From contig JAUXSB010000008.1 in assembly GCA_030681595.1 (NCBI GenBank), positions 89,587-153,586 of the forward strand: 64,000 nucleotides of DNA, in the 5' to 3' direction. The notes beneath the pieces are model-generated. The model was given only the letters and a program-made list of their open reading frames with translations. It had not been told where the DNA came from and did not search any database. Positions 17,249 to 40,046 of this stretch are shown here, piece by piece. The DNA comes from Candidatus Omnitrophota bacterium (GTDB lineage Bacteria; Omnitrophota; Gorgyraeia; Ghiorseimicrobiales; Ghiorseimicrobiaceae). The position numbers and the translations under genes were made by a program. The stretch's first letter is position 1. Every line of letters starts with the position of its first letter.

Positions 17249-17371
17249 AGAGATAAAAAGTTTAGAATTGAAAACCTTAACTGATGAAGCAGAAGTGATA
17301 AGCTAGAGAGCAATGGTTTGGCCTCCGATAGCCAAAGCCATAAAAGCAGAATAAATTTAAAAAGGCAGGGC

Positions 17372-18691: not shown

Positions 18692-18746
18692 AAAACGGGT
18701 AATTCCGAATTCCGTTGGCACGTACCTAATTTAGGAGATTTTTCAG

Positions 18747-19400
18747 ATGCGCATATTACTTATATCTTCAAGTCCGCATAAGGAAAAAAGCCAGACCTTT
18801 TTCCTGGCAAAAGAGGTAGCTAAAGGATTTCCCAGTTCTGTAATAATCGAAATCATACATCTCTGCGATTACAAGATTGAGTTTTGCCGCCATTGCGAGA
18901 GCTGTCATAGAAAAATTATGCTTTGCCCGATAGAAGACGATGCCGGCATAATTTTAGAGAAAATGCTTAAGGCCGAAGGGATAATCTTTGCCTCGCCAAA
19001 CTATATAAATCAGATTACTGCTTCAATGAAGGCGCTCTGGGAACGCGCAGGCCATTTTATCCACTGCCGGCGGCTCTTAGGCAAGTATGTTGTGGGTGTC
19101 GTTTCTTCGGGAAGTGGTGAGGATAGAACTGTTTTAGATTATATTCAGCACTATGCCAATATCTGCGGGGCTCTGTATACGGGAGGTGTTTCTTCTCGCG
19201 CGCCGATTAACAAGGAAACAAAGGAAGAAGCCCGTAACTTAGGCGATAAGCTAATGTTGGATATCCAGGAAAAGAGAGTTTCCTCAGAACAGATAAAAGT
19301 TATTGAGGAGTTTAAGGAGCATTTTGCGGATATAATCAAGATGAAAAAAGATGATTGGAAAGAGGAGTATCATTACTGGCTAAATAAGGGGTGGTTATGA
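18747..19400 (+). CDS. iron-sulfur flavoprotein (Isf-like, NADPH-dependent FMN reductase fold)
   Basis: Flavodoxin-like fold with compact Cys cluster CRHCESCHRKIMLC (Cx2Cx2Cx6C), typical of Isf. Confidence 0.6.
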   Translation: MRILLISSSPHKEKSQTFFLAKEVAKGFPSSVIIEIIHLCDYKIEFCRHCESCHRKIMLCPIEDDAGIILEKMLKAEGIIFASPNYINQITASMKALWERAGHFIHCRRLLGKYVVGVVSSGSGEDRTVLDYIQHYANICGALYTGGVSSRAPINKETKEEARNLGDKLMLDIQEKRVSSEQIKVIEEFKEHFADIIKMKKDDWKEEYHYWLNKGWL

Positions 19401-19523
19401 ATATCTTACTTTTTTTTGGCGGGGCATCGCGCCCGCCTGACTTCATTCGGGCAGGCAAAATCTAATCGCCAGCCACCGCCGAATGGCGGGGTGCCGCCAA
19501 CGGCGGCATTGGCAGATTTTGCT

Positions 19524-19550
19524 TGACAAAATATAAAAAGATGGTATACT
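19524..19550 (+). promoter_or_regulatory. sigma70-like promoter TTGACA-N15-TGgTATACT for the cold-shock gene
   Basis: TTGACA at 19524-19529, extended -10 tggtatact at 19542-19550. Gives a roughly 170-nt 5'UTR. Confidence 0.5.
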
Positions 19551-19583
19551 CGTACCAGTAAATAAGAGTTTAGAAGTCTGAAG

Positions 19584-19619
19584 CCGTAAGGGTAGGATAT
19601 CTGACCTTGCGGTTTTTTT
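19584..19619 (+). terminator. attenuator-like hairpin (8-bp stem with G-U pair) plus T7 inside the csp 5'UTR
   Basis: ccgtaagg...ccttgcgg followed by ttttttt. Confidence 0.4.
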
Positions 19620-19725
19620 GTTATTGTCATTGTTTGCCCAGTTAGGAATCTATGATTCTGGCAGGTAAAGATGATGTGGATTTCTAGCCGGTTTACTAAA
19701 TTTTGAGAAAAGGAGGTAGCAAGCA

Positions 19726-19926
19726 ATGGCAAAAGGAACAGTAAAGTGGTTCAGTGACCAGAAGGGTTATGGATTCATCACCCCCGAAAACGGAAAAGAT
19801 GTATTTGTGCATCATTCCGCGATCCAGGGCGATGGTTTTAAATCTTTAGCAGAAGGCCAGCAAGTCGAGTTCAATATCGAACAAGGCTCTAAAGGCGAAC
19901 AGGCTACAAACGTAGTGAAGCTGTAA
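19726..19926 (+). CDS. cspA: cold-shock protein (CspA family)
   Basis: [18 protein letters not shown] with RNP1/RNP2 motifs; 66 aa. RBS aggagg upstream. Confidence 0.92.
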
Positions 19927-19942
19927 ATCTGGAATAAAACAA

Positions 19943-19976
19943 GGCCCGGCATCTTTTTAGATCCGGGCCTTTTTTT
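19943..19976 (+). terminator. intrinsic terminator of csp
   Basis: ggcccgg-catctttttagat-ccgggcc followed by ttttttt. Confidence 0.75.
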
Positions 19977-20007
19977 ATAATTAAGTGGCATTGAGTGAAA
20001 GGATGCG

Positions 20008-20736
20008 ATGCAAATATTTGTAGGTAATTTATCGTTTGCTTCTACTGATGCAGAGGTAAAGGAGCTTTTTGAAGGTTTTGGGAGTGTTGCTTCTGTTGTA
20101 ATTATAAAGGAGAAAAACGGAGTTAAGTCCCGGGGATTTGGCTTTGTGGAGATGTCCCTCGATCAGGAAGCACAAGCTGCCATCGCCGCTTTAGACGGCA
20201 AGGAGTTTATGGGCCGGCCTCTAAATGTTAGCCCGGTGCGCCCTAAAACGCAAAATGAGAGCCGCGCCGATGAAGTAAAAAATATGCAGGCAAAGATTAA
20301 TGTTAAAACCGAAGCGTATCCCGAGGAACATTTTCAGCAGGAGAAAACACAAAAGGATAACCGGTTTAGTCCGATTTCTAACAAAACGGGCGGATATAAA
20401 AGAGGAAGGCGTTCGCTCAGCTTTTTGAAGAAACGCGCCGCCGCCGGCATTATTGAGGAAGAGATTAAGCCTCGGATAAAAAGTCATGAGAATCCTATGC
20501 GCTGGCGAAAAAGACAAGGCCAAGACAAGCCTTGGCATAAAGGCCGCAGTACGCCTGAACCCGGACAGAGAACTGAGGGCGAACATAAACCTGAAAGAAG
20601 AATTGAGGGAGCCTTTATGCCTTGGAAGAAATCCGCAGGTGGTTCTAAACCTTTGCGTAAGAGTGATGCGCGTAAGTACCATTCCTCGTTTAAAAGCCGC
20701 AAAAGACCCGGCGGCTATAAAAGAGGTGTAGGTTAG
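20008..20736 (+). CDS. RRM-domain RNA-binding protein with long Arg/Lys/Gly-rich C-terminal tail
   Basis: RNP-2 IFVGNL and RNP-1 RGFGFVEM, then a low-complexity basic tail. Confidence 0.7.
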   Translation: MQIFVGNLSFASTDAEVKELFEGFGSVASVVIIKEKNGVKSRGFGFVEMSLDQEAQAAIAALDGKEFMGRPLNVSPVRPKTQNESRADEVKNMQAKINVKTEAYPEEHFQQEKTQKDNRFSPISNKTGGYKRGRRSLSFLKKRAAAGIIEEEIKPRIKSHENPMRWRKRQGQDKPWHKGRSTPEPGQRTEGEHKPERRIEGAFMPWKKSAGGSKPLRKSDARKYHSSFKSRKRPGGYKRGVG

Positions 20737-20804
20737 TAGAAAGTTAATTCTCTTGATAGATGTTTTGTTTAGTAGTAAAATTAATAAAATAACCCAAGGG
20801 TGTT

Positions 20805-22538
20805 ATGCATTATTTTACCGAGCAAAACATTTTTATTTTTCTGGTACAGGTTTTTTTGCTTTTGGGGTTAGCTAGGGCGGCGGGAGAGTTATTCCGCAGG
20901 TTCAGGCAGCCCGCACTCACAGGAGAAATTTTAGTAGGTGTAATTTTAGGCCCCACCATTTTTGGCAGGTTCCTGCCGAATTTATATCAGAACATTTTCC
21001 CGCAGGATATCACGCAGAAGAATATGCTTGAGACGGTAATCTGGCTAGGGCTTTTATTCTTCCTTTTGGAGACAGGCCTGAAGATGGATTTTTCCAGTGC
21101 CTGGCGCCATCGCGGCAAGGCGCTTACCATAGCACTTACCGGTATTATTGTGCCGATGGCTTTAGGTTTTTTTGCCTGCCTTTTATTGCCGGAGCATTAC
21201 TTGGTAAATCCCCGAGAGCGGCTGGTTTTCGCCTTTTTTATGGCGACCGTAATGACGATCAGCGCGATGCCGACTGCCGCGCGCGCCTTAAACGATTTGG
21301 ACTTAGCTAAGACCGACTTGGGTTTTTTGATAATGTCGGCACTCTCGGTGAATGAAATTATCGGCTGGGTGGTTTTCGCGTTTATTTTGCATTTTCTTAA
21401 TCCCGCAGAGAGTATTCAGGCGCAAAAAATATTTCTGATTTTTTCCGGCATTGTGGCGGTAATCATTTTTTGCCTTACCTTCGGCCGCAGGTTTAGCGAT
21501 TTTGTAATTTCCAAGATAAAGGAGTATGGCCTGCCTGAGCCGGCGAGCTCTTTGACTTTTATATCTTTGCTGGGTTTTCTCTGCGGGGCGATATTTCAGA
21601 AAATAGGCGTAAGCGCCCTCTTAGGATTTTTTATCGCCGGCATAATGGCAGGGGAGGCAAGGGCGCTTTCGGAAAGAACACGGCAGGTAATTTCCCAGAT
21701 GGTTTATGCCATATTTATTCCGCTATTTTTTGCCGGAATCGGGCTTAAGGCGGATTTTGTAAAACATTTTGATGTTGGCCTTGTAATTTTTATCGCGGGC
21801 TTAGGGATATTTGGGAAGTTTTTTGGGGCATGGCTAGGTGCCTTATTCAGCGGGCTTGCCAAAGAAAACATAATGCCGCTTGCTATCGCGCATACCCCTG
21901 GCGGCTCAATGGAGATCGTTATCGGAATTTTAGCTTTGCAATACGGCTTGATTAATGAAGTAGTATTTGTGGCGATAGTCTCAGGAGGTATAATTTCATC
22001 ACTTATCCTTGGGCCGTGGTTAAAATACGTAGTAAATAAGCGCAAGGAAATAAGTATTCTTGAATTTTTCTCAAAGCGCGTTGTAATTGCCGATTTAAAG
22101 TCAGGAGAGCGCAACGGCGCAATCCATGAGCTCTGCACAGTTATTGCCGAGCAGGGAAATACTCCACATCCGGATACTTTATATTCTGCGGTATTGCGAA
22201 GGGAAAATACAATGGGTACGGCAATAGAAGAGGGGGTGGCTATTCCGCATGCGCGCCTTGGTTCTTTGGTTAAGCCGATAGTCGCTTTCAGCAGGTCAAA
22301 CCGTGGTATAGAATGGAATTCTCCCGATGGAAAACCCACGCATTTTATTTTTTTAATCCTTACGCCAAAGGAAGACGACTGGTCGCAGGTTGAGATATTG
22401 CGGATTATTGCCAAGGCAATGAGCGATAAGAATGTAAGCCAGGCAATAGCAAAGGCAGGCGACCATAATGATCTGTGGCAGGCGCTTGAGCATGCCTTTA
22501 CCCAGCACCGTATTGCAAGGAAAGGGAAGGGCAAATAA
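20805..22538 (+). CDS. CPA2-family cation/proton antiporter fused to a C-terminal PTS EIIA(Ntr)-type domain
   Basis: About 12 TM Na_H_exchanger-like core. C-terminal domain has the phospho-His motif GVAIPHARL and the EIIA-2 pattern. Confidence 0.62.
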   Translation: MHYFTEQNIFIFLVQVFLLLGLARAAGELFRRFRQPALTGEILVGVILGPTIFGRFLPNLYQNIFPQDITQKNMLETVIWLGLLFFLLETGLKMDFSSAWRHRGKALTIALTGIIVPMALGFFACLLLPEHYLVNPRERLVFAFFMATVMTISAMPTAARALNDLDLAKTDLGFLIMSALSVNEIIGWVVFAFILHFLNPAESIQAQKIFLIFSGIVAVIIFCLTFGRRFSDFVISKIKEYGLPEPASSLTFISLLGFLCGAIFQKIGVSALLGFFIAGIMAGEARALSERTRQVISQMVYAIFIPLFFAGIGLKADFVKHFDVGLVIFIAGLGIFGKFFGAWLGALFSGLAKENIMPLAIAHTPGGSMEIVIGILALQYGLINEVVFVAIVSGGIISSLILGPWLKYVVNKRKEISILEFFSKRVVIADLKSGERNGAIHELCTVIAEQGNTPHPDTLYSAVLRRENTMGTAIEEGVAIPHARLGSLVKPIVAFSRSNRGIEWNSPDGKPTHFIFLILTPKEDDWSQVEILRIIAKAMSDKNVSQAIAKAGDHNDLWQALEHAFTQHRIARKGKGK

Positions 22539-22541
22539 ACC

Positions 22542-23234
22542 ATGTTTAGAATATCGCCTACAACAGGTTTAAACCTTTTTAAGGGATGCCCGCGTTGTTT
22601 TTGGCTGCATTATAACCGAAAGATTGCGCGCCCGCGCGGAATTTTTCCCTCTTTACCCGGCGGGATGGATTTAGTGATTAAGGAATATTTTAATGCTTAC
22701 CGCGGAAAACTTCCTCCGGAACTTGAGGGTAAAATAAAAGGAAAGCTTATGCCGGATTTGGCACTTCTGGAGAAATGGCGCAACTGGAGGACCGGCCTTG
22801 AATACTGCGATAAAGCCTTGGATGCGGTTTTGTTCGGCGCGCTCGATGATTGCCTTGTTGAGGGAGATTTATATATTCCGCTTGATTATAAAACTAAAGG
22901 CAGCGCCCCTAATGACGGCGATTCTGAAAAATATTACCAGACGCAGTTAGACAGCTATGCCTTTTTATTAAGCGCAAATGGCTACCGTACGGCAGATTTT
23001 GCCTATTTAGTTTATTATTACCCCGCAAAGGTAGAAAAAGACGGAATGGTGAAATTTAACATCAAGGCATGCGAAATAGGGACCAGTATTACGCGGATAA
23101 AAAAACTTTTTAGCGAAGCAGTCGAAGTGCTTAAAGGCGCGATTCCTAAGGCGGCGTATACCTGCGAATATTGCTCATGGCATAATAGCCGCCTGAGTGC
23201 CGAAGATAAATACTTCGGCAAATCGCTTATTTGA
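22542..23234 (+). CDS. Cas4/RecB-like PD-(D/E)xK nuclease, standalone
   Basis: N-terminal SPTxxxxxFxxCPRCFWLHY (Cas4 CPR motif), GALDD (motif II), IPLDYKTK ((D/E)xK), QTQLDSY (QxxxY) and a C-terminal CEYC pair, 4 Cys in total. Start lies 4 nt after the antiporter stop. Confidence 0.5.
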   Translation: MFRISPTTGLNLFKGCPRCFWLHYNRKIARPRGIFPSLPGGMDLVIKEYFNAYRGKLPPELEGKIKGKLMPDLALLEKWRNWRTGLEYCDKALDAVLFGALDDCLVEGDLYIPLDYKTKGSAPNDGDSEKYYQTQLDSYAFLLSANGYRTADFAYLVYYYPAKVEKDGMVKFNIKACEIGTSITRIKKLFSEAVEVLKGAIPKAAYTCEYCSWHNSRLSAEDKYFGKSLI

Positions 23235-23279
23235 TATTAAGTTTGCTGTTTTAGCGGATATTCTATCCGCAAGCGCCAT

Positions 23280-23669
23280 ATGGATAGAAAAAAGCTTGCC
23301 CTCATACATATTATTAAAAAAGAGCTGAACTTAAGCGACGCTGAATACAGAGATATTTTACGTAATGCCTGCGGTGTGAATAGCGCGAAAGAATTAGACG
23401 AGGGAAAGTTCAAAAAACTAATGCGCTATTTTGTGCGCAGTAAATATTACCGGGTTAATTCGCACGGCTTGACCTTAAGGCAAAAACTGTATATCCAAAG
23501 CCTTGCCCAAAAATTAGAATGGCTGCCTGAACACCTGCGTAATTTCACCCACAAATACTATCATAAGTCTGACATGACACAGTTGACAAAAGAAGAAGCG
23601 AGCAGGCTCATTGAATCCTTAAAAAATATCAGAGTTCACGCTTCCATTAAAGATGAGGGGTTACGTTAG
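23280..23669 (+). CDS. GemA-like (phage Mu gp16, DUF1018) small protein
   Basis: Pattern LALIHIIKKELNLSDAEYRDILRNACGV.SAKEL....FKKLMRYF resembles the DUF1018/GemA consensus. Assigned from memory of that family. Confidence 0.35.
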   Translation: MDRKKLALIHIIKKELNLSDAEYRDILRNACGVNSAKELDEGKFKKLMRYFVRSKYYRVNSHGLTLRQKLYIQSLAQKLEWLPEHLRNFTHKYYHKSDMTQLTKEEASRLIESLKNIRVHASIKDEGLR

Positions 23670-25309: not shown

Positions 25310-25804
25310 ATGCAAATAAAAAAGGAAAGAAGAAAATATCTTAGATACAATACTGAGGTTAAGATTTATTTTCATGTAAACTACGACCTTAAAACTAAAG
25401 TAAGGTTTCAGGTTTTAGATGAGAAAGAAAGCATGCTGCTATCAAAGAAATACCCCGCTTTAAGCAGAGACGTCAGCGCGGAGGGTTTGCGTTTTAATTC
25501 GGGTAAAGAGCTTAAGAAGGGAAATAGCCTTTATTTGGAAGTGTATTTACCAAGGAAGAAACGGCCTGTGCGTATGACAGGCCAGGTCAGGTGGTCAAAA
25601 AAAGTTTTGGGCTCCGGCTCCGGTAAAAATAAATTTGATACAGGGGTAAAATTATTAACTGTTTCGGGTAAGCCTGTTTCTAACTCAATTTATTTCGATA
25701 ACGAAAGCAGGGTTATCTGGAGCACGGTTTTGGATTCTGTCTTTGGCAGCTTCCGTAAGCTGATGCAAAAAAACACAGTTCCGCGGCGAGGTAACCGATT
25801 ATGA
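25310..25804 (+). CDS. PilZ-domain protein
   Basis: RRKYLRY (RxxxR) and RDVSAEGLRFNS (DxSxxG). Confidence 0.58.
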   Translation: MQIKKERRKYLRYNTEVKIYFHVNYDLKTKVRFQVLDEKESMLLSKKYPALSRDVSAEGLRFNSGKELKKGNSLYLEVYLPRKKRPVRMTGQVRWSKKVLGSGSGKNKFDTGVKLLTVSGKPVSNSIYFDNESRVIWSTVLDSVFGSFRKLMQKNTVPRRGNRL

Positions 25805-26280
25805 CAAGCAAAATTATACGAAGGCTAAATAAAAAAGTTGAGCGCCGGCGTTTTTTACGGCATTCGATGTGTTTTCCGCTTAGCTTTAGAGTAGCCCATG
25901 GAAGAGAAGGTAAAATCACAAAAGAAGAGATTTCCCTGACTAAGGATGTAAGCTGGGGAGGTTTATTGTTTTCGGCAAAGCACCGGGTTGAAAAAGGGAC
26001 CCCTATCGTTATAGCCATGCCTGTGCAGGATAAGATATTTAAAGTTAAGGCGAAGGTTGCGCGTTGTGTGATTAACCCGGACGCGAAACTTTATGATATC
26101 GGTGTTTATTTTCAAAGATTCAGCGAAGCGTTTAAGGTAAAATTGATTGAACAGATGTATCTAATCAGCGAATACCGGGAGCTGCGCAGTGTAGAGTTAG
26201 GCAGGATGCTGTCTATGCAGGAGGCTTCTGAGGAATGGATAAAACGCTATTCAGCGAGGTTTCAAAGGATTTATTGGTAA
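25801..26280 (+). CDS. PilZ-domain protein
   Basis: ERRRFLRH and TKDVSWGGLLFS motifs. Overlaps the upstream PilZ gene by 4 nt. Confidence 0.55.
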   Translation: MTSKIIRRLNKKVERRRFLRHSMCFPLSFRVAHGREGKITKEEISLTKDVSWGGLLFSAKHRVEKGTPIVIAMPVQDKIFKVKAKVARCVINPDAKLYDIGVYFQRFSEAFKVKLIEQMYLISEYRELRSVELGRMLSMQEASEEWIKRYSARFQRIYW

Positions 26281-28989: not shown

Positions 28990-29093
28990 TTGAGGCAAAG
29001 GAAAGGCGATTTTAAGTTTTAGGTATTAAGGAATTAAGTATTAATTCGTCATTCGAAATTCGGGTTTAATATTTATTAAAATTAGAGGTTATT

Positions 29094-30029
29094 ATGGATA
29101 AGTTTTTAGTTACCGGCGGCGCAGGTTTTATCGGTTCGCACATAGTAGAGAGATTGCTAAAAGATGGGCATTTCGTGCGTGTTTTGGATAATCTTTCCAG
29201 CGGCAAGAAGGAAAACCTTGATTTAACGAATCCTAATTTGGAGTTATTCGTAGGTGATATAGTAAATTATGAAGATTGCCGCAACGCGTTAAGGGGGATA
29301 GAGTTTTGCCTGCATCAGGCCGCCTTACGTTCAGTGCCTAAATCCATGTTAAATCCCTATGATTACAATAAAGTAAATATTGACGGGATTCTGAATATGT
29401 TAAGGGCAGCGCGTGAAGCGGGAATAAAACGCTTTGTCTTTGCGTCTTCTAGTTCTGTATACGGCGATACAAATATTTTTCCGCAAAAGGAAGAGCATCT
29501 GCCGCGGCTTATTTCGCCTTATGCTTTAAGTAAATTAGCCGGAGAGTACTATTGCCGTATTTTTTCAAAAAATTACGGCCTGGAAACCGTGTCATTGCGT
29601 TATTTTAATGTTTTTGGGCCGCGCCAGGCATTAGATGATGAGTATTCCGTAGTAATACCTAAATTTATCGCTAATATGCTTAAGGATTTGCCGCCTCCTG
29701 TGCATGGCGATGGCAGGCAATCCCGCGATTTTACTTATGTCGAGAGTATAGTTGAAGCCAATGTACTTTCGGCCCTGACAGCAAATGTTAAATGTGAGGT
29801 ATTTAATGCTGCCTGCGGAAAAGATTACTCGATTTTGGAAATTGTAGGCGCCTTGAATAAGATAATGCATAAAAAAATACGCCCGGTATTTGAACCTTCA
29901 CGTATGGGTGACGTAAAGCGTACATTAGCAGATATCAGCCGGATTAAGAAGAGCTTAAAATATAGGCCGCAGGTTAGTTTTGAGGACGGTTTGGCTACTA
30001 CGGTTAACTGGGTTAGTTCAAGGCTCTAA
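29094..30029 (+). CDS. NAD-dependent nucleotide-sugar 4-epimerase (WbpP/TviC-like SDR)
   Basis: GGAGFIGSH and YALSKLAGE (YxxxK). Confidence 0.7.
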   Translation: MDKFLVTGGAGFIGSHIVERLLKDGHFVRVLDNLSSGKKENLDLTNPNLELFVGDIVNYEDCRNALRGIEFCLHQAALRSVPKSMLNPYDYNKVNIDGILNMLRAAREAGIKRFVFASSSSVYGDTNIFPQKEEHLPRLISPYALSKLAGEYYCRIFSKNYGLETVSLRYFNVFGPRQALDDEYSVVIPKFIANMLKDLPPPVHGDGRQSRDFTYVESIVEANVLSALTANVKCEVFNAACGKDYSILEIVGALNKIMHKKIRPVFEPSRMGDVKRTLADISRIKKSLKYRPQVSFEDGLATTVNWVSSRL

Positions 30030-30060
30030 CCATATATATAGCAAATAGTTAAGTACATCA

Positions 30061-30088
30061 ATATCCCTATTTATCAAAATAGGGATAT
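30061..30088. terminator. 28-bp perfect hairpin/palindrome ATATCCCTATTT-ATCA-AAATAGGGATAT followed by a T-rich tract (terminator and/or operator)
   Basis: 12-bp perfect stem with a 4-nt loop, followed by tgttttatc. Sits 27 nt upstream of a promoter. Confidence 0.6.
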
Positions 30089-30114
30089 TGTTTTATCGGC
30101 CGGCGAAAAATGCC

Positions 30115-30142
30115 TTGACATAGCCTCAAAATATGGTAACAT
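30115..30142 (+). promoter_or_regulatory. internal sigma70-like promoter TTGACA-N16-TAACAT
   Basis: TTGACA at 30115-30120 and TAACAT at 30137-30142. The first ATG (30146) would lie upstream of the predicted start site, so ATG 30170 is the more likely start codon. Confidence 0.45.
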
Positions 30143-30169
30143 TTTATGTATGTTTTTGAAAGGATCAAT

Positions 30170-30409
30170 ATGGGGAATAATCATTTAACCGCAAGACAGG
30201 CGCAGATTTACGAGTTTCTAAAAGGTTACTTTTTGCGGAATGGCCATTCGCCTTACTTGCGCGAGATACAGGATGGATGCCAAGTGAAGTCGCATAAGTC
30301 AGTGATCGACAAACTGTTGGCGCTTGAGCGAAAAGGCTACATACGCAGAAGGCTTAATAAACACCGAAGCATAAAACTTGTAGCGCAGAAAGAAAACCAG
30401 GTGGTTTAG
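30170..30409 (+). CDS. LexA-N-terminal-domain-only winged-helix DNA-binding protein (no S24 peptidase domain)
   Basis: LTARQAQIYEFLKGYFLRNGHSPYLREIQ...LLALERKGYIRR closely matches the LexA DNA-binding domain pattern. Stop TAG abuts the uxs ATG. Confidence 0.55.
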   Translation: MGNNHLTARQAQIYEFLKGYFLRNGHSPYLREIQDGCQVKSHKSVIDKLLALERKGYIRRRLNKHRSIKLVAQKENQVV

Positions 30410-31342
30410 ATGAAGAAAACAGTTTTAGTCACAGGCGGCGCAGGATTTATCGGTTCACATCTATGTGGCAGGCTGATAACTAAAGGATATAAGGTAATTT
30501 GTATGGATAACTTGCTTACCGGCAGGCTATCTAATGTCCGCCGCCTCTTAAAAGATAAAAACTTTAGGTTTATAAAACATAACATTTGTGATTATATTAA
30601 GATAAGTTCTAAAATAGGCTATATCTTGCATTTTGCCTCACCGGCAAGCCCCGCCGATTATTTAAATTATCCGATTCAAACCCTGAAAGTCGGTTCTTTG
30701 GGTACCCATAATGCCTTAGGTTTGGCTAAAGCCAAAAGAGCGGTTTTTTTGCTTGCTTCGACTTCGGAAGTTTATGGGGACCCTTTAGTGCATCCTCAAT
30801 CCGAGAGCTATTGGGGCAATGTTAACCCTGTAGGCCCGCGGGGCGTGTACGACGAAAGCAAGCGTTTTGCTGAAGCAATAACTTTGGCGTATCATCGCGT
30901 GCACAAGATCGATACTAAGATTGTGCGTATTTTTAATACCTACGGGCCGCAAATGAGAAAAAATGACGGCCGGGCAATTCCTAATTTTATATCTCAGGCA
31001 TTGTCCAATCGCGATATTACTGTTTACGGCAAGGGAAGCCATACCCGTAGCTTCTGTTATATTGACGATTTGATAGATGGCATATTCAGGTTAATGCTCT
31101 CAAAGATCAATGAACCGGTTAACGTAGGCAACCCCGCAGAATACACGGTGCTAAGATTGGCCAAGGAAATAGTTAAGTTGACCGGATCAAAAAGCAAAAT
31201 TGTTTTTAAGCCCCTGCCGCAGGATGACCCAAAAGTCCGCTGCCCGGATATCACAAAAGCCAAAAAGGTGTTGGGATGGTTGCCTAGCGTTTCTTTGAGC
31301 GATGGCCTAAAAAAAACCATAGAATATTTTCGGAGTAGATAA
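30410..31342 (+). CDS. uxs: UDP-glucuronate decarboxylase (UDP-xylose synthase-like SDR)
   Basis: [15 protein letters not shown] and [10 protein letters not shown]...[11 protein letters not shown]...[19 protein letters not shown]. Confidence 0.78.
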
Positions 31343-31343
31343 T

Positions 31344-32486
31344 ATGCAAATACCGTTACTGGATTTAACAAGTCAGTATAAGAGTATTAAAAGCGAGATA
31401 GATGAGGCAATAGAGCAGGTTTTGAATAACGGAACATTTATCTTGGGAGAAAATGTACGCAGACTCGAAGAAGAAATCGCTCATTTTATTGGCACGGGTT
31501 TTGGTATAGGAGTTGCTTCCGGCACCGATGCCCTGGAGTTATCTCTTACGGCATTAGGTATAGGTGAGGGCGATGAGGTGATTACTACGCCTTTTACTTT
31601 TATCGCGACAGCCGAGGCGATTTGCGCTGTGGGAGCCAAGCCGGTATTTATAGACATCGACCTAGATACCTATAACATTGATCCGCAAAAAGTGAGAGAA
31701 TATTTACGCAAAGCGCAGAGCGCAAAGCGCAGAGCGATAAAAGCTCTAATCCCCGTGCATTTATACGGCCAGACATGCCTGATGGATGAATTATGCGAAA
31801 TTACCAAGGAATATAAAATAAAAATGGTTGAGGATTGCGCTCAGGCAATAGGCGCCGAATGCCGGGGCAAAAAAGTCGGCTCTTTTGGCGACTGCGCCGG
31901 TTTTAGTTTTTTCCCGAGCAAGAACTTAGGCGCTTACGGTGACGGCGGGATGGTGCTTACAAATAATCCGGAGGTAGCCGCAACATTAAAAATGCTGCGC
32001 GCACACGGCAGCAGCAAGAAATATTTCCATAAAATAAAAGGCCGTAACAGCCGCCTTGATGAATTACAGGCCGCAATTTTAAGAGTGAAGTTAAAGAAAA
32101 TATCTGGCTGGAACCAGGCACGGATAAAATACGCTAATTTATACAATACTCTTTTTAGTAAGCAAGAGTTAGAAAAAGAGATAATATTGCCAAAATCTCA
32201 AGGAGATAGGCTGCATATTTACCATCTTTATTGTATACGCGTAAAAAATAGGGATAAGCTCAAGGAGTTTTTAGCTGCCAATGGTGTTTCTTGCGCCATA
32301 CATTACCCATTGGGTATTCATCTCCAGGAAGTCTATAAAAATTTAGGATATAAGAATGGGGATTTGCCGAATAGCGAATTAGCCTCTTCGCAGATCCTTG
32401 CTTTGCCTTTATATCCGGAAATGAGCATTGAACAGATTGAGTATGTGGTAGATAAAATAAACTCTTTTTATTCAAAAGGAGCGTAG
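31344..32486 (+). CDS. DegT/DnrJ/EryC1/StrS-family PLP-dependent sugar aminotransferase (WbpE/ArnB-like)
   Basis: Fold-type I aminotransferase pattern with PLP-lysine region FSFFPSKNLGAYGDGG. Confidence 0.8.
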   Translation: MQIPLLDLTSQYKSIKSEIDEAIEQVLNNGTFILGENVRRLEEEIAHFIGTGFGIGVASGTDALELSLTALGIGEGDEVITTPFTFIATAEAICAVGAKPVFIDIDLDTYNIDPQKVREYLRKAQSAKRRAIKALIPVHLYGQTCLMDELCEITKEYKIKMVEDCAQAIGAECRGKKVGSFGDCAGFSFFPSKNLGAYGDGGMVLTNNPEVAATLKMLRAHGSSKKYFHKIKGRNSRLDELQAAILRVKLKKISGWNQARIKYANLYNTLFSKQELEKEIILPKSQGDRLHIYHLYCIRVKNRDKLKEFLAANGVSCAIHYPLGIHLQEVYKNLGYKNGDLPNSELASSQILALPLYPEMSIEQIEYVVDKINSFYSKGA

Positions 32487-33497
32487 ATGCTTAAAATAGC
32501 GCAGATTGGGATAGGCAGTTGGGGGCGTAACCTTTTAAGGAATTTTGCCGCACTTTCCGATTCACAGGTTACGCTATGTTGTGACCAGAATAAGAAGGTG
32601 CTGGAGAGCATAAAGGCGCAATATAACAATAAGATAAAGGTTACTACAAGGTTTGATGATATATTGGAAGATCCCGATATTGATGCGGTAGTTGTCGCGA
32701 CACTTCCCCAAACACACGCCCATTTTGCCATAAAGGCGCTGTCAAGCGGAAAACATGTCTTTGTTGAAAAGCCGTTATCTTTAGATATTGCCGACGCTGA
32801 AAAAATGATAAAAGCGGCAGAGAGAAACAAGCGCCTCTTGATGGTCGGGCATTTACTCTTATATCATCCGGCAGTAAGAAAGCTAAAAGGCTATATTGAA
32901 CAAGGCTATTTAGGCGATGTGCGTTACTTATATTCGACAAGGGTGAATCTTGGGCAGGTCCGCGAGATGGAAAATGCTCTTTGGAGCCTTACGGCGCATG
33001 ACATATCCGTAGCGATGTATTTATCAAATAAAAAACCGCTTAAAGTTTCCGCCACCGGCAAAGCGTATCTTAGAAAAAATATACAGGATGTAGTTTTTTT
33101 AAATATCAGTTTTAAAGACAATGTTATCGCCCATATACATGCCAGTTGGCTTGACCCGCATAAAATAAGAAAATTCACCGTTGTCGGCTCAAAGAAAATG
33201 GCAGTGTTTGATGATATGGACCCGGCTGAAAAAATCCGTATTTACGACAAAGGCTATGATTGGCAGAAAAACGTGGGCACATACGATACTTTTCTTACTT
33301 TAAGAGAAGGAGATATTAATATCCCGCGCGTAGACATGGTTGAGCCGTTAAAGCTTGAATGCCAGCATTTTGTTGATTGTATCAGGGATAGAAAAAGGCC
33401 TTTTACAGACGGAGAAAGCGGATTGTCTGTCTTAAAAGTTTTGAAGGCCGCACAGGAGTCTCTAGAATTAGATGGCGTACCGGTCAAAATCAAATAA
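32487..33497 (+). CDS. Gfo/Idh/MocA-family oxidoreductase (WbpB-like sugar 3-dehydrogenase candidate)
   Basis: N-terminal Rossmann [11 protein letters not shown] and the family's C-terminal domain. Confidence 0.72.
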
Positions 33498-33513
33498 AAA
33501 ACGGGATTATTTT

Positions 33514-34068
33514 GTGCATGAGTCGTCCTATGTAGACAAAAATGTCTCAATAGGCAGAGGTACCAAAATCTGGCATTTCTGCCATATTTTGGAAGGTTCC
33601 GCTATAGGCACGAACTGTAAGATCGGGCAAAATGTCGTAATCGGGCCGAATGTAAGGATAGGTAATAATGTTAAAATACAAAATAATGTTTCTGTTTATC
33701 CGGGCGTAATATTGGAAGACGATGTATTTTGCGGCCCAGCGTGTGTTTTTACGAATGTTTTTAACCCTAGGGCCGACATAGCAAGGATGGATGAGATGCG
33801 CCATACTTTGGTAAAAAAAGGCGCTACTATTGGTGCAAATGCCACGATTGTCTGCGGCCATACTATAGGTAGATATGCCTTTATAGGCGCAGGAGCGGTA
33901 GTTACTAAAAATACCCCGGATTTCGCTCTGGTTTATGGTAATCCTGCCAGAGTGTCCGGCTATATGTGTGAGTGTGGCATAAAACTAAAATTTAATAAAT
34001 TAAGCGCTTATTGTGTTGCTTGCGGCAGGCGGTATAGGATTAAGAAAGGAATAGTAGAAAATGAGTAA
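33514..34068 (+). CDS. left-handed beta-helix (hexapeptide) sugar N-acetyltransferase (WbpD-like)
   Basis: Hexapeptide repeats ([25 protein letters not shown]). GTG 33514 chosen as start; track gave 33472, which overlaps the upstream gene. Confidence 0.65.
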
Positions 34069-35719
34069 AGCAAAGAAACTGCGGGAGTTGTTCGCTAATG
34101 AGAAAATAATACGCGTAGTTGGCGCGCATAACGCCTTAAGTGCGAAGTTAGTCGAAGGCGCGGGGTTTGATGCGGTCTGGTCAAGCGGTTTAGAGATTTC
34201 AACCAGCTTTGGCGTTCCGGACGCGAATATTCTTACTATGACTGATTTCCTGAATGTTTCTAGTATTATGAATGAGGCCGTCTCTATACCTATCGTTGCT
34301 GATTGTGATACGGGGTTTGGTAATTCTAATAACGTGATTCACATGGTTAAAAAGTATGAAGCCGCGGGGATAGCCGCGGTTTGCCTAGAGGACAAATATT
34401 TCCCTAAGGTTAATAGTTTTATTCCGGGAAGGCAGGAGTTGGCTTCGATTTCGGAATTTGTCGGTAAGATTTTGGCGGCCAAAAATGCCCAGCTTAGTAA
34501 GGATTTTATGGTTATCGCCAGGGTAGAAGCATTAATTGCCGGATGGGGAATGGATGAAGCATTGAGGAGGGCGGGGGCCTACGCGGATGCCGGAGCAGAC
34601 GCTATACTTATCCATAGTAAAAGTAAAACTATCGATGAAATAGCTGAGTTTGCAAAGCGTTGGAAAAATATGTCGCCGTTGGTTGTCGTGCCTACGACTT
34701 ACTGCGATGTCCATATTGACGATTTAAGCCGTATCAACATCAAGATGGTTATTTACGCCAATCAAGGAATAAGGGCATCGATAAAGTCGATGCAGGAGGT
34801 TCTTGGGCGAATACATAAGGATGGGACTAGTAGAAATATCGAAAACCATATCAGTACCATGGAAGAAGTTTTTTGCCTCCAGGGCATGCATAAAATGAAA
34901 GAAGATGAACTTGTTTATTCATCCACAAGCGATAAGATTGTAGCTGTTATACCTGCCGCGGGGGATCATTTAGAAGAATATTCGATGAAAGATATATCAA
35001 AAGATATCCCGATTACGATGCTGGACATTAATGGTAAATCGCTCTTGCAGCGCCAGGCCGATATATTAAACAGGTCAAAAATCTATGATATCAGAGTGAT
35101 CGGCGGGTATAAAAAAGAAAAAATAAGCGTCGAAGGCGTAAAAATTATACCTAATTTAGAATATGAAACGCGGGGAATGATCCATTCGATTATGTGCGCG
35201 TTGAAAGACATTAAAGATTCGGCGTTTATTATATACGGAGATACACTTTTTGACTATTTGCTTATCAGTAAGATATTGAATACCCGCCGTGATATAACAT
35301 TGGCAGTTGATACAAGTAATGTGATAGGTGATGCTGGAACGGGCAAGAAGCCGGAGCTTGTTTTGACTGATGGCCCGGTTAAATCCCGGAGAAGAAGTTT
35401 GCATCAGGATAGCCTGCATGCGGTGAAAGACATCGGAAGCTCTGTTAAATACGCAAAGGATAATTTACAATTTACCGGTATTATGTTTTTATCGCAAAAA
35501 GGCGTAGAGATATTCAAGAAGAATTACGCCAAATATGAAAAAGAATACGCGCGGTCAAAGTCGCCAGAGGCAGGTACCTTTTGCCGCATGAATCTAATCG
35601 ATTTTTTAAAAAAATTGCATGATTCAGGCTATGGAATTGACTGTCTGTATGTTAATTCCGGGTGGATGGAAATCCATTCGCTCGATGATTATAAGCTTGC
35701 CTGCTCAATTTTTAAATAA
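34061..35719 (+). CDS. ppm: phosphoenolpyruvate phosphomutase fused to a C-terminal nucleotidyltransferase domain
   Basis: ICL/PEP-mutase fold with the Ppm-diagnostic [10 protein letters not shown] (EDK-x5-NS) and [10 protein letters not shown]-terminal roughly 250 aa is NTP-transferase-like (IVAVIPAAG...). Confidence 0.78.
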
Positions 35720-35728
35720 AGAAATTTT

Positions 35729-36217
35729 ATGATTAGGGTAAAAGATTTTTGGGATTATTTAGCGGGAAAAAATTTTATTTTTTTTAGCGGGGTACCGTGC
35801 TCTATTTTTAAAACGGTGTTAGATGAGGCAATAAATAGCGAAATCATTACATATGTTCCGGCTGTGCGGGAAGATGTTGCCATGGGAGTAAGCTCCGGCG
35901 CGTATTTGGCGGGCAAGAAAAGCGGAATTTTAATTCAAAATTCAGGGTTGGGGCATATCGTAAATACCCTGACTTCGTTTAACCTTATTTACAAAATTCC
36001 CGTCCTCATGTTTATCAGTTGGCGCGGCTATATGGGTAAAGACGCTCCGGAGCATAAAATTATGGGTAGGAAAACGATAAGTTTGTTGAGTGGCCTTGAT
36101 ATACCGCATAGGGCGCTTAGCGTAGATTTTGACAAAGATTTGAACTGGGCAATCGGCATAATGGAAAAGAAACACATCCCCGTTGCGTTAATAGTTAAAG
36201 AGGGCCTATTTAAATGA
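35729..36217 (+). CDS. ppd: phosphonopyruvate decarboxylase, alpha (N-terminal ThDP pyrimidine-binding) subunit
   Basis: TPP_enzyme_N-like 162-aa protein directly after ppm, overlapping the beta subunit by 4 nt. Confidence 0.7.
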   Translation: MIRVKDFWDYLAGKNFIFFSGVPCSIFKTVLDEAINSEIITYVPAVREDVAMGVSSGAYLAGKKSGILIQNSGLGHIVNTLTSFNLIYKIPVLMFISWRGYMGKDAPEHKIMGRKTISLLSGLDIPHRALSVDFDKDLNWAIGIMEKKHIPVALIVKEGLFK

Positions 36218-36777
36218 CGACCGAGGATATCTTGAGATCAGTCTTAGCTTTTAAGGTTGATAACGCCGTATACCTTTTTACTAACGGCTATATCAGCCGG
36301 CAGGCCTACGGAATCGCCGATAGCGCTAAGAATTTTTATTTGATCGGGTCAATGGGGTTAGTTTCTTCCTTAGGGTTAGGAATCGCCATGAACTCTAAAA
36401 AGAAAGTTGTCGTTCTAGACGGAGATGGAAGCATCTTGATGAATATGGGCACAATGCCGCTTATCGGGTACATAGAACCGAATAATTTGATACATTTTAT
36501 TTTGGATAACTTTGCCTATCATAGTACCGGTAACCAGCCGACTATTTCGGAAAATATAGATTTTTTAAAGATGGCTTGCGCTTGTGGGTACAAAAAGGTG
36601 TTTCGTTTTAAAAAGATCAGTGAATTTAAGAGCGCGCTACCAGAAATATTTAATGCTTGCGGCCCGGTTTTTGTGCATATGGTTATCGGCAAGAATGATT
36701 CCAGCGCCGGCCCCCGGGTGGGCCTGGCTCCTCTTATGCTCGCGCGACGCATTAGGAAAACCATAAGGTCTCTTTAA
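36214..36777 (+). CDS. ppd: phosphonopyruvate decarboxylase, beta (ThDP-binding) subunit
   Basis: ThDP motif GDGSILMNMG...N. Confidence 0.72.
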   Translation: MTTEDILRSVLAFKVDNAVYLFTNGYISRQAYGIADSAKNFYLIGSMGLVSSLGLGIAMNSKKKVVVLDGDGSILMNMGTMPLIGYIEPNNLIHFILDNFAYHSTGNQPTISENIDFLKMACACGYKKVFRFKKISEFKSALPEIFNACGPVFVHMVIGKNDSSAGPRVGLAPLMLARRIRKTIRSL

Positions 36778-36779
36778 TT

Positions 36780-37934
36780 ATGTTTCATATTTTTACTGTT
36801 ATAGGCGCTCGGCCACAATTTGTTAAAGCGGCGGTAGTTTCTCTGGCAATAAAGAGGCTGGGGCGTGGTATTATTAAAGAGTCTATTATACACACGGGAC
36901 AGCATTACGACTATAGTATGAGCGGTATTTTTTTTAAAGAATTGAATATTCCCCGGCCGATAGATAATCTTAATGTTGGTTCTTTTAGCCATGGTAAGCA
37001 GACCGGTATTATGCTGGAGAGGCTGGAAAGGGTTTTTATTAGGGATCATCCTGATATGGTTTTAGTTTACGGCGATACAAATTCTACTTTGGCGGCAACG
37101 CTCGCCGCCGCTAAATTGCACATACCTGTCGCCCATGTGGAAGCCGGCATGCGCAGTTTCAATAAATTAATGCCGGAAGAACTTAACCGTGTAGCGGTAG
37201 ACCACATGAGCGATATTTTATTCTGTTCTTCGGATGCCTCGGTAAAGAATTTACGCCGGGAAGGAATACCGGATAAAAATAACGGTAAGTGCTGCGTTGT
37301 GTTAAATGTAGGCGATGTTATGGTTGATGCTTTAAAATTTTTTTATAGTTATGCAGAGAAGAGGTCAAAAATATTAGCTAAATTGAATCTTAAGCCCCGG
37401 AATTATTACTTAGTTACTGTGCATAGGGCAGAAAATACGGATAGTTTGGAAAAATTAAAAGTTATTTTTAAATCTTTGAATATCATCGCCGAGAAAGGCA
37501 GTTGTGTCGTGATTCCCATGCACCCGCGCACTCTCAGCGCGTTGAAAAGATTGGGGATGAAGAATTTTTCAAAAAATATGCGTATAATCGGACCTGTTTC
37601 TTATTTTGATATGCTGCTTTTGGAAAAAAACGCGGCAGGAATTTTTACTGATTCAGGCGGCGTGCAAAAAGAAGCCTATATTTTTAGAGTGCCTGCTATT
37701 ACATTGAGGACAGAGACAGAGTGGGTGGAGACCGTAAAGAGCGGATGGAATACCTTGGTGCCAATAAACGAAAAGGCGATTATGTTGGCTTTTGATAAGA
37801 TGGCGCGCTTTAAGCGGGATTCTTTGAGGGTCACAAGCAATATTTACGGTGACGGGAAGGCATCTGGCCGCATAGCCGGTTTTTTTCAAAAATATTTTAT
37901 AACAACAGTAAAAATTAAACCAGGACTCGGCTAA
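36780..37934 (+). CDS. UDP-N-acetylglucosamine 2-epimerase (WecB/WbpI/NeuC family)
   Basis: FHIFTVIGARPQFVKAA N-terminus, HVEAGMRS and PMHPRT motifs. Confidence 0.8.
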   Translation: MFHIFTVIGARPQFVKAAVVSLAIKRLGRGIIKESIIHTGQHYDYSMSGIFFKELNIPRPIDNLNVGSFSHGKQTGIMLERLERVFIRDHPDMVLVYGDTNSTLAATLAAAKLHIPVAHVEAGMRSFNKLMPEELNRVAVDHMSDILFCSSDASVKNLRREGIPDKNNGKCCVVLNVGDVMVDALKFFYSYAEKRSKILAKLNLKPRNYYLVTVHRAENTDSLEKLKVIFKSLNIIAEKGSCVVIPMHPRTLSALKRLGMKNFSKNMRIIGPVSYFDMLLLEKNAAGIFTDSGGVQKEAYIFRVPAITLRTETEWVETVKSGWNTLVPINEKAIMLAFDKMARFKRDSLRVTSNIYGDGKASGRIAGFFQKYFITTVKIKPGLG

Positions 37935-38110
37935 TGAGGTTTGCCAAAGAATGTTAAGCCTAAAAGAAATCAGGGCAAAATACCAGTCTCCTTGGTATGA
38001 GAAGAAGAGAATTAACAATACGATTTATTTTTTTTGTACCGCCGTAGGCAGCTTAAGGCATGGTTTTGATCCCGCCCTTATCTTAATACTCGGTTTTTGC
38101 GCTTCTCCGG
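37792..38110. repeat. segmental duplication copy A (3' end of the 2-epimerase gene + intergenic + 5' part of the CDP-alcohol phosphatidyltransferase gene; carries an internal 281-bp deletion)
   Basis: 37792-38020 is about 97% identical to 39444-39673. 38021-38110 aligns to 39955-40046. Confidence 0.85.
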
Positions 38111-38255: not shown

Positions 38256-39368
38256 ATGCATTCACGAATAAAAATTTTGATATTTTCATTCCTTCCGCTT
38301 ATACTGTTGCTATTTTTCGGCGAGTTATTTTGCAGGGTGAGGTCCTATGTTCGAGACAAAGATGCCTCTTATTTGCTTACGCCGTTAATCAGGAAAGAGA
38401 AGTCCGTAGAGTATCAATTCCAGGCTAGCCATTTTTTTAAAGGCAGCCCTGATTGGTATTATAAGTTAAAACCCGCTTCTTACTCTCCTCATAAAATTTC
38501 TGGTTATTGCGGCCGCTATACAATAAATTCGCTTGGATTCCGCGGCAAGGAATTCGATCCGTTCAATAAGGATGGGAAGCTGAGGATATTTTGTGTCGGC
38601 GAATCCAGTACCTTTTGTGCCGAGTCGTCCGATGCGGACACCTGGCCGGCGCGGCTAGAATACTACTTGGACAAAAATAAAGAAGATAGTTATGAGGTAA
38701 TAAACAGCGGTTTCCCCGGATATTACAGCTGGAATTATATCAATCTTATCCGCCTTGAGTTAATAAAATATAAACCTGATATGTTGATTATTTACGCAGG
38801 GATAAATGATTTATACGGCAGCATTGAGAAGAAGAAAAAAATAATTAACAGGATGGCAGATTATATCCATGCTTTATTATATTATCGCGGGTCTATGTTT
38901 TATGCCTTGTTTTCAGAAAAGGTGAAAGTTGCGACAAATTCTCACAGACCAATAAATATTGATACGATTGATAGTATCGGAACTTATATTAATAATATTG
39001 AAGGTATAATTAAAATCTGTAAAGATAACGGTATAAGGGTTATATTGGTGAGGCAGTTGCTTTATGCGCCTAATGAAATATTCGCGCGCGATAATTTAAC
39101 ACTGGAAGGGGTTAGGAAGGCTTTAGAGGCAATGCCGTCAGATAGCCATGGCGTGAACTATTCTACTTATCTGGAATTCTATCGCCATTATGAATTAATG
39201 GAATCTTTGGCAAAGTTATCCAGTAAATACACCATAACCACATTAGATTTTAGAGGAGAATTTTTAAAGGTTTTGGCTAATGATAAGGGAAAGCTTTTCT
39301 TTGATATGGTACACCTGACTCTTTATGGGAATGACCTTTTAGCCAAATTAATATCAGGCTTCATTTAG
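38256..39368 (+). CDS. SGNH/GDSL-family hydrolase with N-terminal membrane anchor
   Basis: Block I FCVGESST, block III GINDL, block V DMVHLT. Inserted between the two duplication copies. Confidence 0.6.
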   Translation: MHSRIKILIFSFLPLILLLFFGELFCRVRSYVRDKDASYLLTPLIRKEKSVEYQFQASHFFKGSPDWYYKLKPASYSPHKISGYCGRYTINSLGFRGKEFDPFNKDGKLRIFCVGESSTFCAESSDADTWPARLEYYLDKNKEDSYEVINSGFPGYYSWNYINLIRLELIKYKPDMLIIYAGINDLYGSIEKKKKIINRMADYIHALLYYRGSMFYALFSEKVKVATNSHRPINIDTIDSIGTYINNIEGIIKICKDNGIRVILVRQLLYAPNEIFARDNLTLEGVRKALEAMPSDSHGVNYSTYLEFYRHYELMESLAKLSSKYTITTLDFRGEFLKVLANDKGKLFFDMVHLTLYGNDLLAKLISGFI

Positions 39369-39443
39369 AAAAGCAGTATTTCAAAAACGATAAACAATAA
39401 ATGAGCATAAAACAGAAAATATTTATTTTTTTAATCCTTGGTT

Positions 39444-40046
39444 TTTGATAAAATGGCGCGCTTTAAGCGGGATTCTTTGAGGGTCACAAGCAATATTTAC
39501 GGTGACGGGAAGGCATCTGGCCGCATAGCCGGTTTTTTTAAAAAATATTTTATAACAACAGTAAAAATTAAACCAGGACTCTGCTAATGGGGTTTGCCAA
39601 AGAATGTTAAGCCTAAAAGAAATCAGGGAAAAATACCAGTCTCCTTGGTATGAGAAGAAGAGAATTAACAATATTTTCTCGCGGTATTTCTATACTGCCA
39701 TAGCAACTGTATTGGTCAAGTTTATTTTGCCTACAAAGATTACAGCTAATCAGATTACTGTAAGTTGGGTTATCCTGGGTTTTTTAGGGTGTTTGCTATT
39801 TACCGCGGGAAATTATTGGGTTAGTATCTTGGCCGTTTTGGTTATACAGTTGCATGTTGTTTTAGATTATGTGGATGGCCCGATTGCAAGGGCGCGCAAT
39901 AAAAAAAGCTTCAAAGGCATCTATATTGAACGCGTAGGGCATGATCTCATCTATACGATTTATTTCTTTTGTATCGCCGTAGGCAGCTTAAAGCATGGTT
40001 TTGATCCCACCCTTATTTTAATACTCGGTTTTTGCGCTTCGGTGGG
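39444..40046. repeat. segmental duplication copy B (intact)
   Basis: Carries a 44-codon remnant of the epimerase 3' end (39444-39580) upstream of the intact phosphatidyltransferase gene. Confidence 0.85.

Follow-up and report, generated by a model that had tools for sequence, protein, structure and literature searches.

The DNA analysed here (the window, a 64-kb stretch from a Candidatus Omnitrophota MAG) carries a glycan locus in which a small winged-helix (wHTH) gene stands among genes for nucleotide-sugar enzymes. The first genes of the locus encode a UDP-glucose dehydrogenase, a TviB/WbpA-like dehydrogenase and a TviC-like epimerase, and these are followed by a terminator, a promoter and the wHTH gene. 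The relevant features are as follows.

From about 26385: start of the glycan locus, preceded by two PilZ genes
29094..30029, + strand: SDR sugar epimerase (TviC-like UDP-GlcNAcA 4-epimerase), final gene of the preceding unit (Pfam Epimerase, 2e-58)
30059..30096, + strand: predicted intrinsic terminator with a 14-bp perfect stem, the 4-nt loop ATCA and a TTTTAT tail (from folding and comparison of orthologues)
30115..30142, + strand: predicted sigma-70-type promoter (-35/-10 placement conserved in orthologous loci)
30129..30144, no strand: 16-bp dyad AAATAT-GGTA-ACATTT, proposed as operator on the basis of sequence conservation
30158..30164, + strand: RBS GAAAGGA, 5 nt 5' of the ATG (from sequence; orthologues have GGGG/GAGG in the equivalent position)
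30170..30409, + strand: gene for a 79-aa LexA-type winged-helix protein (PF01726, 3e-15)
30410..37934, + strand: co-directional, tightly packed downstream genes, probably co-transcribed (from profile matches and spacing)

The top NCBIfam match of the epimerase is TviC (8e-75, under the TviC cut-off). The genes from 30410 to 37934 encode, in this order, a UXS-like SDR, a DegT aminotransferase, a WbpB-like 3-dehydrogenase, a hexapeptide acetyltransferase, a PEP mutase-nucleotidyltransferase fusion, a split TPP decarboxylase and a UDP-GlcNAc 2-epimerase, with more transferases following. The TAG stop codon of the wHTH gene directly adjoins the ATG of the next sugar gene at 30410, and the operon would reach to about 37934, the earliest intergenic gap of more than 100 nt downstream of the wHTH gene being found after that position. 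With nucleotide-sugar enzymes on both flanks, the small ORF does lie in the glycan setting ascribed to it in the initial annotation. An Rfam scan of 29000-31000 detected neither a riboswitch nor a known sRNA, only sub-threshold noise.

Several other features of the region were observed. The fusion gene (TIGR02320, 1e-97) and the split TPP-dependent decarboxylase after it (34061-36777) suggest a phosphonate of the 2-aminoethylphosphonate type as a constituent of the glycan that this unit makes. A 236-nt direct repeat, with copies at 37785-38020 and 39438-39673 that are 97% identical and 1653 nt apart, flanks a GDSL-lipase-like gene (38256-39368) on both sides; within its first copy are the UDP-GlcNAc 2-epimerase gene's 3' end and a hairpin, CTGGCCGCATAGCCGG, with T7 after it, and the repeat looks like an insertion or duplication scar within the glycan locus. 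Further 5', genes for a PIF1-like helicase, a PD-(D/E)XK nuclease and a Mu GemA-like protein (17318-23669) may be the remnant of a mobile element, and the two adjoining PilZ-domain genes immediately 5' of the glycan locus (25310-26280) may provide a link to c-di-GMP.

The ORF at 30170-30409 has 80 codons including the stop. The initial annotation had recognised the N-terminal winged-helix domain of LexA in it, which stands (Pfam LexA_DNA_bind covers profile positions 2-64 of 65), while the length of 80 aa given there has to be corrected to 79. The NCBI annotation has a protein of 87 aa starting at the ATG at 30146; as this codon is just 4 nt 3' of the -10 hexamer, and as all orthologues share the start MGNNHLT, the true product is likely the 79-aa form. 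A family-profile search of the PDB retrieved LexA structures at 7e-12. The AF2 model (pLDDT 82) consists of three helices and a two-strand wing and superposes on the DNA-bound E. coli LexA domain (3JSO) at about 1.0-1.1 Å with a TM of 0.75-0.81, and Foldseek matched LexA chains at an rmsd of 0.9-1.4 Å. The recognition helix reads S41-H42-K43-S-V-I-D47-K-L.

The remainder of a LexA protein is missing. Against the LexA equivalog TIGR00498 the protein scores 56 bits, the cut-off being 110.95, and only positions 2-74 of 203 are aligned. The ORF ends after the wing, so that the S24 peptidase/dimerisation domain is absent, as had been stated previously; because the linker, the Ala-Gly cleavage site and the Ser/Lys dyad are missing along with S24, the protein cannot respond to RecA*, and cleavage of the RecA type is impossible. 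Beyond the wing there is a short tail, which varies among the homologues and is modelled by AF2 with low confidence, and neither the sequence alignment nor the model contains a recognisable dimerisation module.

About 45 Omnitrophota loci were covered by our comparison. In a protein collection clustered at 90% identity there are 30 homologues, of which the 23 close ones (≥56% identity) all have the DNA-binding domain (DBD) only and are 71-98 aa long; 21 alignment columns are invariant among these 23. A scan of one genome per GTDB species gave 36 Omnitrophota species-level loci, each from a separate assembly, and in 36 of 36 the ORF ends after the wing, the 13 remaining loci of the scan being full-length LexAs from other phyla. 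Among the Omnitrophota loci compared, the small gene is single-copy per genome. Above 95 bits, a search of 1.8 billion representative proteins yielded about 20 short ones.

In every locus examined, the small gene is co-directional with nucleotide-sugar or glycan genes, and many of the gaps to its neighbours are below 30 nt or are 4-nt overlaps. The downstream neighbours (n=38) include 13 DegT aminotransferases, 13 SDRs like that of the window and 4 PMT_2, the remainder including GT2, NeuB and a carbamoyltransferase, while 15 SDR epimerases and 4 UGDH (UDP-sugar dehydrogenases) are found among the upstream neighbours (n=38). The LexA-DBD-only protein is a conserved gene of Omnitrophota surface-sugar operons, and the comparison is in agreement with the previous suggestion of a regulator gene dedicated to the glycan locus. 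The databases name the protein ‘LexA repressor’ or ‘hypothetical’, and in the literature we found no paper connecting LexA-domain proteins with Omnitrophota or with glycan loci. Two loci have a second HTH_24 protein and a HepT/MNT-like toxin-antitoxin pair after the wHTH/SDR pair (L183, 4121-5631; L186, 572-907), and locus content is therefore variable.

The promoter of the initial annotation, TTGACA-N16-TAACAT, is present upstream of the gene. Its -35 box TTGACA (30115-30120) and -10 box TAACAT (30137-30142) are separated by a 16-nt spacer, and an extended -10 TG is found at 30134-30135, which gives 10 of 12 hexamer matches plus TG and would place the transcription start near 30149. Both boxes keep their position in orthologous loci whose flanks are otherwise unalignable, and the extended -10 architecture recurs in most of these.

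The extended -10 and -10 elements are covered by a 16-mer, AAATATGGTAACATTT (30129-30144), with the dyad consensus AAATRT-N4-AYATTT in the family, which has no other match in the 64-kb window. When the 98 intergenic regions of 40 loci were searched by k-mer enrichment, and also by eye, the sole conserved non-coding motif was AAATATGG/TATGGTAA, that is, the dyad 16-mer. The 14 top matches of a PWM scan of 411 kb are all on the coding strand and 5' of the small gene, and their scores are clearly set apart from the rest. The pattern AAA[AT]RT-RRYA-AYATT[TC], searched on both strands, has 22 matches in 452 kb of Omnitrophota loci where we estimate that about 0.1 would be expected by chance; each locus has one, on the coding strand, and in every case it heads the unit in which the protein is encoded.

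Three loci show that the dyad goes with the transcription unit rather than with the immediate 5' end of the gene. In L042 it is found 4.4 kb 5' of the gene, heading a sat-cysC-carbamoyltransferase-...-wHTH operon, and in L188 and L189 the small gene is the tenth of a long operon with the dyad 7.6 kb upstream, before the first gene past lptD. The earlier notion of a switch in the middle of the operon holds for the lineage of the window only; in other species the dyad is at the operon head, 4-8 kb 5' of the gene. In the 452 kb of loci scanned, the dyad was found at the heads of glycan operons alone and not at DNA-repair genes. As neither the S24 domain nor, in these loci, an SOS regulon is found, we regard the protein, on sequence grounds, as a LexA-domain derivative and not as a LexA.

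About half of the loci have no strong dyad within their 5-kb flanks; most of the operon heads concerned probably fall outside these flanks. A relaxed search of the loci without a strong site gave a few candidates with 1 mismatch, for example AGATAT-TATA-ATATTT, 114 nt upstream in L030. Two matches near full-length lexA genes were judged to be coincidental: the one in L062 is located in a very AT-rich spacer beside better 7-bp palindromes, and the lexA next to the one in L071 has Cheo-type GAAC-N4-GTTT boxes. The palindromes in L062 (4905-4985, 5' of a full-length Ignavibacteria lexA) are the perfect 7-bp repeats ACCAAAT-AAA-ATTTGGT and ACCATAC-AGAA-GTATGGT, which are candidate LexA boxes of the Ignavibacteria lineage. 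An 8-mer, AGCCACCA/TGGTGGCT, is shared by intergenic regions of 8 loci and may be tRNA-related.

One question is whether the 16-mer is anything other than a strong, conserved sigma-70 extended -10 promoter, in which case the wHTH protein would have other targets or no role here. The 16-mer fits TTGACA-N16/17-TRTGnTAAYAT, and its common form doubles as a generic extended -10 promoter (TRTGnTAAYAT). When metagenomes were scanned with the -35 box included (TTGAY-N9/10-AAATATGGTAAYATT), at least 120 matches were obtained, on contigs of 19-62% GC, mostly AT-rich, and with unrelated genes downstream; one of the genes preceded by an identical 16-mer is a Firmicute-like lexA with its own Cheo-type boxes. 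Only 2 of 81 metagenome sites are near a LexA-DBD gene. Being so common 5' of unrelated genes, the 16-mer sequence by itself is no proof of a dedicated operator; since we estimate that tens to hundreds of chance or generic-promoter matches are to be expected, the metagenome scan neither defines a regulon nor disproves an operator.

Within the Omnitrophota loci, however, several features of the 16-mer speak for more than a promoter. No other promoter among the 98 intergenic regions of the same loci has the motif. Its dyad symmetry is perfect in some loci: the perfect palindrome AAATGT-GATA-ACATTT is found in L183, L185 and L187, and AAATAT-GGTA-ATATTT in 8 loci, six of the Tyr type described below (L018, L041, L042, L044, L188, L189) and two from metagenomes (L068, L098). 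The dyad centre varies (GGTA, GATA, AGTA, AGCA) while the arms are constant. In L024, L031 and L039 the extended -10 TG is lost but both arms are kept. L024 has a separate upstream promoter, TTGACG-18-TATTAT, which leaves the dyad at about +5 to +20, directly 5' of the RBS, and in L039 it is the left arm and not the right that the -10 box (TAAAAT, 17 nt past TTGACA) overlaps. Also, in none of the 22 sites has the -10 box drifted to TATAAT; its two non-consensus positions (TAAYAT vs TATAAT, with A at position 3 and Y at position 4) remain unrepaired, and precisely these bases are the dyad partners of T6 and R5.

Finally, a base in the right arm follows residue 42 of the protein, the second residue of the recognition helix: His42 goes with C in 11 of 11 cases and Tyr42 with T in 10 of 10. 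The number of independent events is small: a weak NJ tree groups nearly all His-type proteins in one clade, L187 being possibly a second origin, so that the covariation amounts to one, perhaps two, independent events and is largely a single phylogenetic split. Taken together, the perfect palindromes, constant arms, shifting register, unrepaired -10 box and tracking of residue 42 favour a separate protein-binding dyad, and we consider a promoter without operator function unlikely, though still deserving of some weight. A site at -22 to -7, or just past the start, would fit repression by occlusion and not activation.

It is much less probable that the protein is no transcription factor at all but a domesticated winged-helix with a role in glycan synthesis, for example as a co-translated partner of the SDR or aminotransferase. 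Such a role would agree with its tight translational coupling to enzymes (4-nt overlaps), with the lack of a dimerisation domain and with its frequent position deep within an operon. However, the recognition helix and the wing are the best-conserved regions of the 23 homologues, with S41, K43, D47, N63, H65 and R66 invariant, and the protein is folded like the LexA domain in its DNA-bound form. A fixed protein partner is also argued against by the downstream gene, which varies between loci (DegT, SDR, PMT_2, GT2, NeuB).

The remaining candidate for an operator is the palindrome ATATCCCTATTT-ATCA-AAATAGGGATAT at 30061-30088, which the initial annotation had placed correctly upstream of the ORF and for which it had suggested two functions, to terminate the epimerase gene and to serve the small regulator as operator. 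Its perfect arms extend to 14 bp, at 30059-30072 and 30077-30090 (CAATATCCCTATTT / ATCA / AAATAGGGATATTG, then TTTTAT). No palindrome of this kind occurred in 100 shuffles of the window, and it is the sole inverted repeat of ≥10 nt in 29900-30500. The predicted RNA hairpin is stable (-17.5 kcal/mol, z = -6.3) and begins 29 nt after the stop of the co-directional epimerase gene at 30029; its weaknesses as a terminator are a T-tail of only 4 U and G-C in only 4 of the 14 stem pairs. The -35 box starts about 24-25 nt after the stem and 20 nt after the T-tail.

Hairpins occur at the same place in four other loci: CAGCCCAGA...TCTGGGCTG followed by TTTTCGTT in L001 (-20.4 kcal/mol), ATCCCTAT...ATAGGGAT with T6 in L002 (-15.9 kcal/mol), CCTATTA...TAATAGG with T6 in L015 (a weak stem, -6.5 kcal/mol), and GCAGGGCACCC...GGGTGCCCTGC with a T-run in L024. 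The stem sequences differ among these and the window, and the hairpin with its T-run alone persists. As it is thus conserved as a structure and not as a sequence, we interpret the hairpin as the ordinary intrinsic terminator of the upstream epimerase unit and not as an operator, so that of the two functions proposed for it only the first is retained. A shared operator would have to be conserved in L001, where the recognition helix is nearly identical to that of the window protein, yet the stem is unrelated. Many loci have no intergenic space at all 5' of the small gene. Further copies of the palindrome are absent from the 64-kb window with up to 3 mismatches allowed, and a half-site search of the window gave chance-level matches only. 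The dual function is hardly tenable: the palindrome is perfect, unique in the window, far above chance and just upstream of the -35 box, and its inner AAATAG resembles the half-site AAATRT, but stems differ between loci despite near-identical recognition helices, the hairpin is missing where the gene is embedded in an operon, and the inner half-sites (CTATTT-N4-AAATAG) are everted relative to the conserved dyad.

The four closest loci (window 30030-30058; L001 5860-5890; L002 5485-5512; L015 4865-4895) share a short conserved stretch, TATA...ATAGTTAnnTAMA, directly 5' of the hairpin, and this may reflect mere recent common ancestry.

Of the explanations considered, we favour, with somewhat better than even confidence, a cleavage-independent autorepressor that is derived from LexA and dedicated to the glycan operon, acting via the 16-bp dyad. 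From the sequence patterns described, we infer that the protein would bind the dyad, would repress by this binding and would assemble on the DNA as two monomers. Isolated LexA N-terminal domain still recognises its operator, weakly, and dimerises on DNA, which makes such an assembly plausible. The upstream unit (two sugar dehydrogenases and the epimerase) would be transcribed as far as the terminator at 30059-30096, and a new unit would begin 20 nt further on, with RNA polymerase engaging the near-consensus extended -10 promoter and starting near 30149. The first product would be the 79-aa wHTH protein, which, translationally coupled to the sugar-modifying enzymes, would accumulate alongside them. 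Two monomers would then assemble on the dyad at 30129-30144, covering the extended -10 and -10 elements, and its occupancy would exclude RNA polymerase, resulting in negative feedback on the glycan unit from 30170 to about 37934. The proposed loop would have no RecA-dependent relief of repression.

For the phylum as a whole, we consider it an evenly balanced proposition that the Omnitrophota possess a module in which a DBD-only paralogue or descendant of LexA has been rewired from SOS control to an autorepression of surface-glycan operons that does not depend on cleavage. Such a module would have its own box, AAATRT-N4-AYATTT, with box and gene moving together in operon rearrangements and residue 42 setting the C/T position.

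The Omnitrophota are uncultured, often ultra-small and possibly host-dependent, and so their surface glycans likely matter to their lifestyle. The present analysis provides a candidate regulator, a putative operator at single-base resolution and a predicted His42-C/Tyr42-T specificity pair, all of which can be tested without cultivation. It also provides an example of the reuse of the LexA DNA-binding domain outside SOS, minus the cleavable domain, and so bears on the evolution of LexA binding motifs and regulons.

The LexA SOS repressor (PF01726 plus PF00717; TIGR00498) shares with the 79-aa protein the N-terminal winged-helix fold, at about 30% identity. LexA has a palindromic site over its own promoter, and with the dyad as a putative counterpart we propose a similar autorepression for the 79-aa protein. 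The two differ in that the 79-aa protein lacks linker, cleavage site, Ser/Lys dyad and dimerising S24, and in that its site, in the 452 kb of loci scanned, is tied to glycan operons and not to repair genes. With 6-bp arms and a 4-bp spacer the dyad is comparable in size to known LexA boxes, the motif diversity of which has been reviewed (PMC8565304), while AAATRT-N4-AYATTT is absent from the LexA boxes listed there. In size and fold the protein corresponds to the isolated LexA N-terminal fragment (PDB 1LEA, residues 1-84; TM 0.78 query-normalised, 0.85 1LEA-normalised). That fragment, however, is a proteolytic or engineered product, while the DBD-only form of Omnitrophota is a native gene in 36 or more species.

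Polysaccharide operon regulators encoded within their locus include UpxY/UpxZ of Bacteroides and enterobacterial RfaH with ops/JUMPStart, which act on elongation or antitermination via NusG-like proteins and RNA/DNA pause signals. Like the system described here, these have a small regulator gene, or a site, that serves long glycan operons specifically and is located at or near the operon head. In contrast to them, the Omnitrophota protein is a wHTH with a promoter-overlapping dyad, which would imply control of initiation, and its gene is present once per genome, not once per locus. The uncoupling of the LexA wHTH from the peptidase domain is also seen in other lineages, where proteins with tandem double LexA-DBD and no S24 occur (P0038, P0045, P0046, P0053, P0054). 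These have two domains per chain and a LexA-like recognition helix, SPNGV.CHL, and would act as single-chain ‘dimers’.
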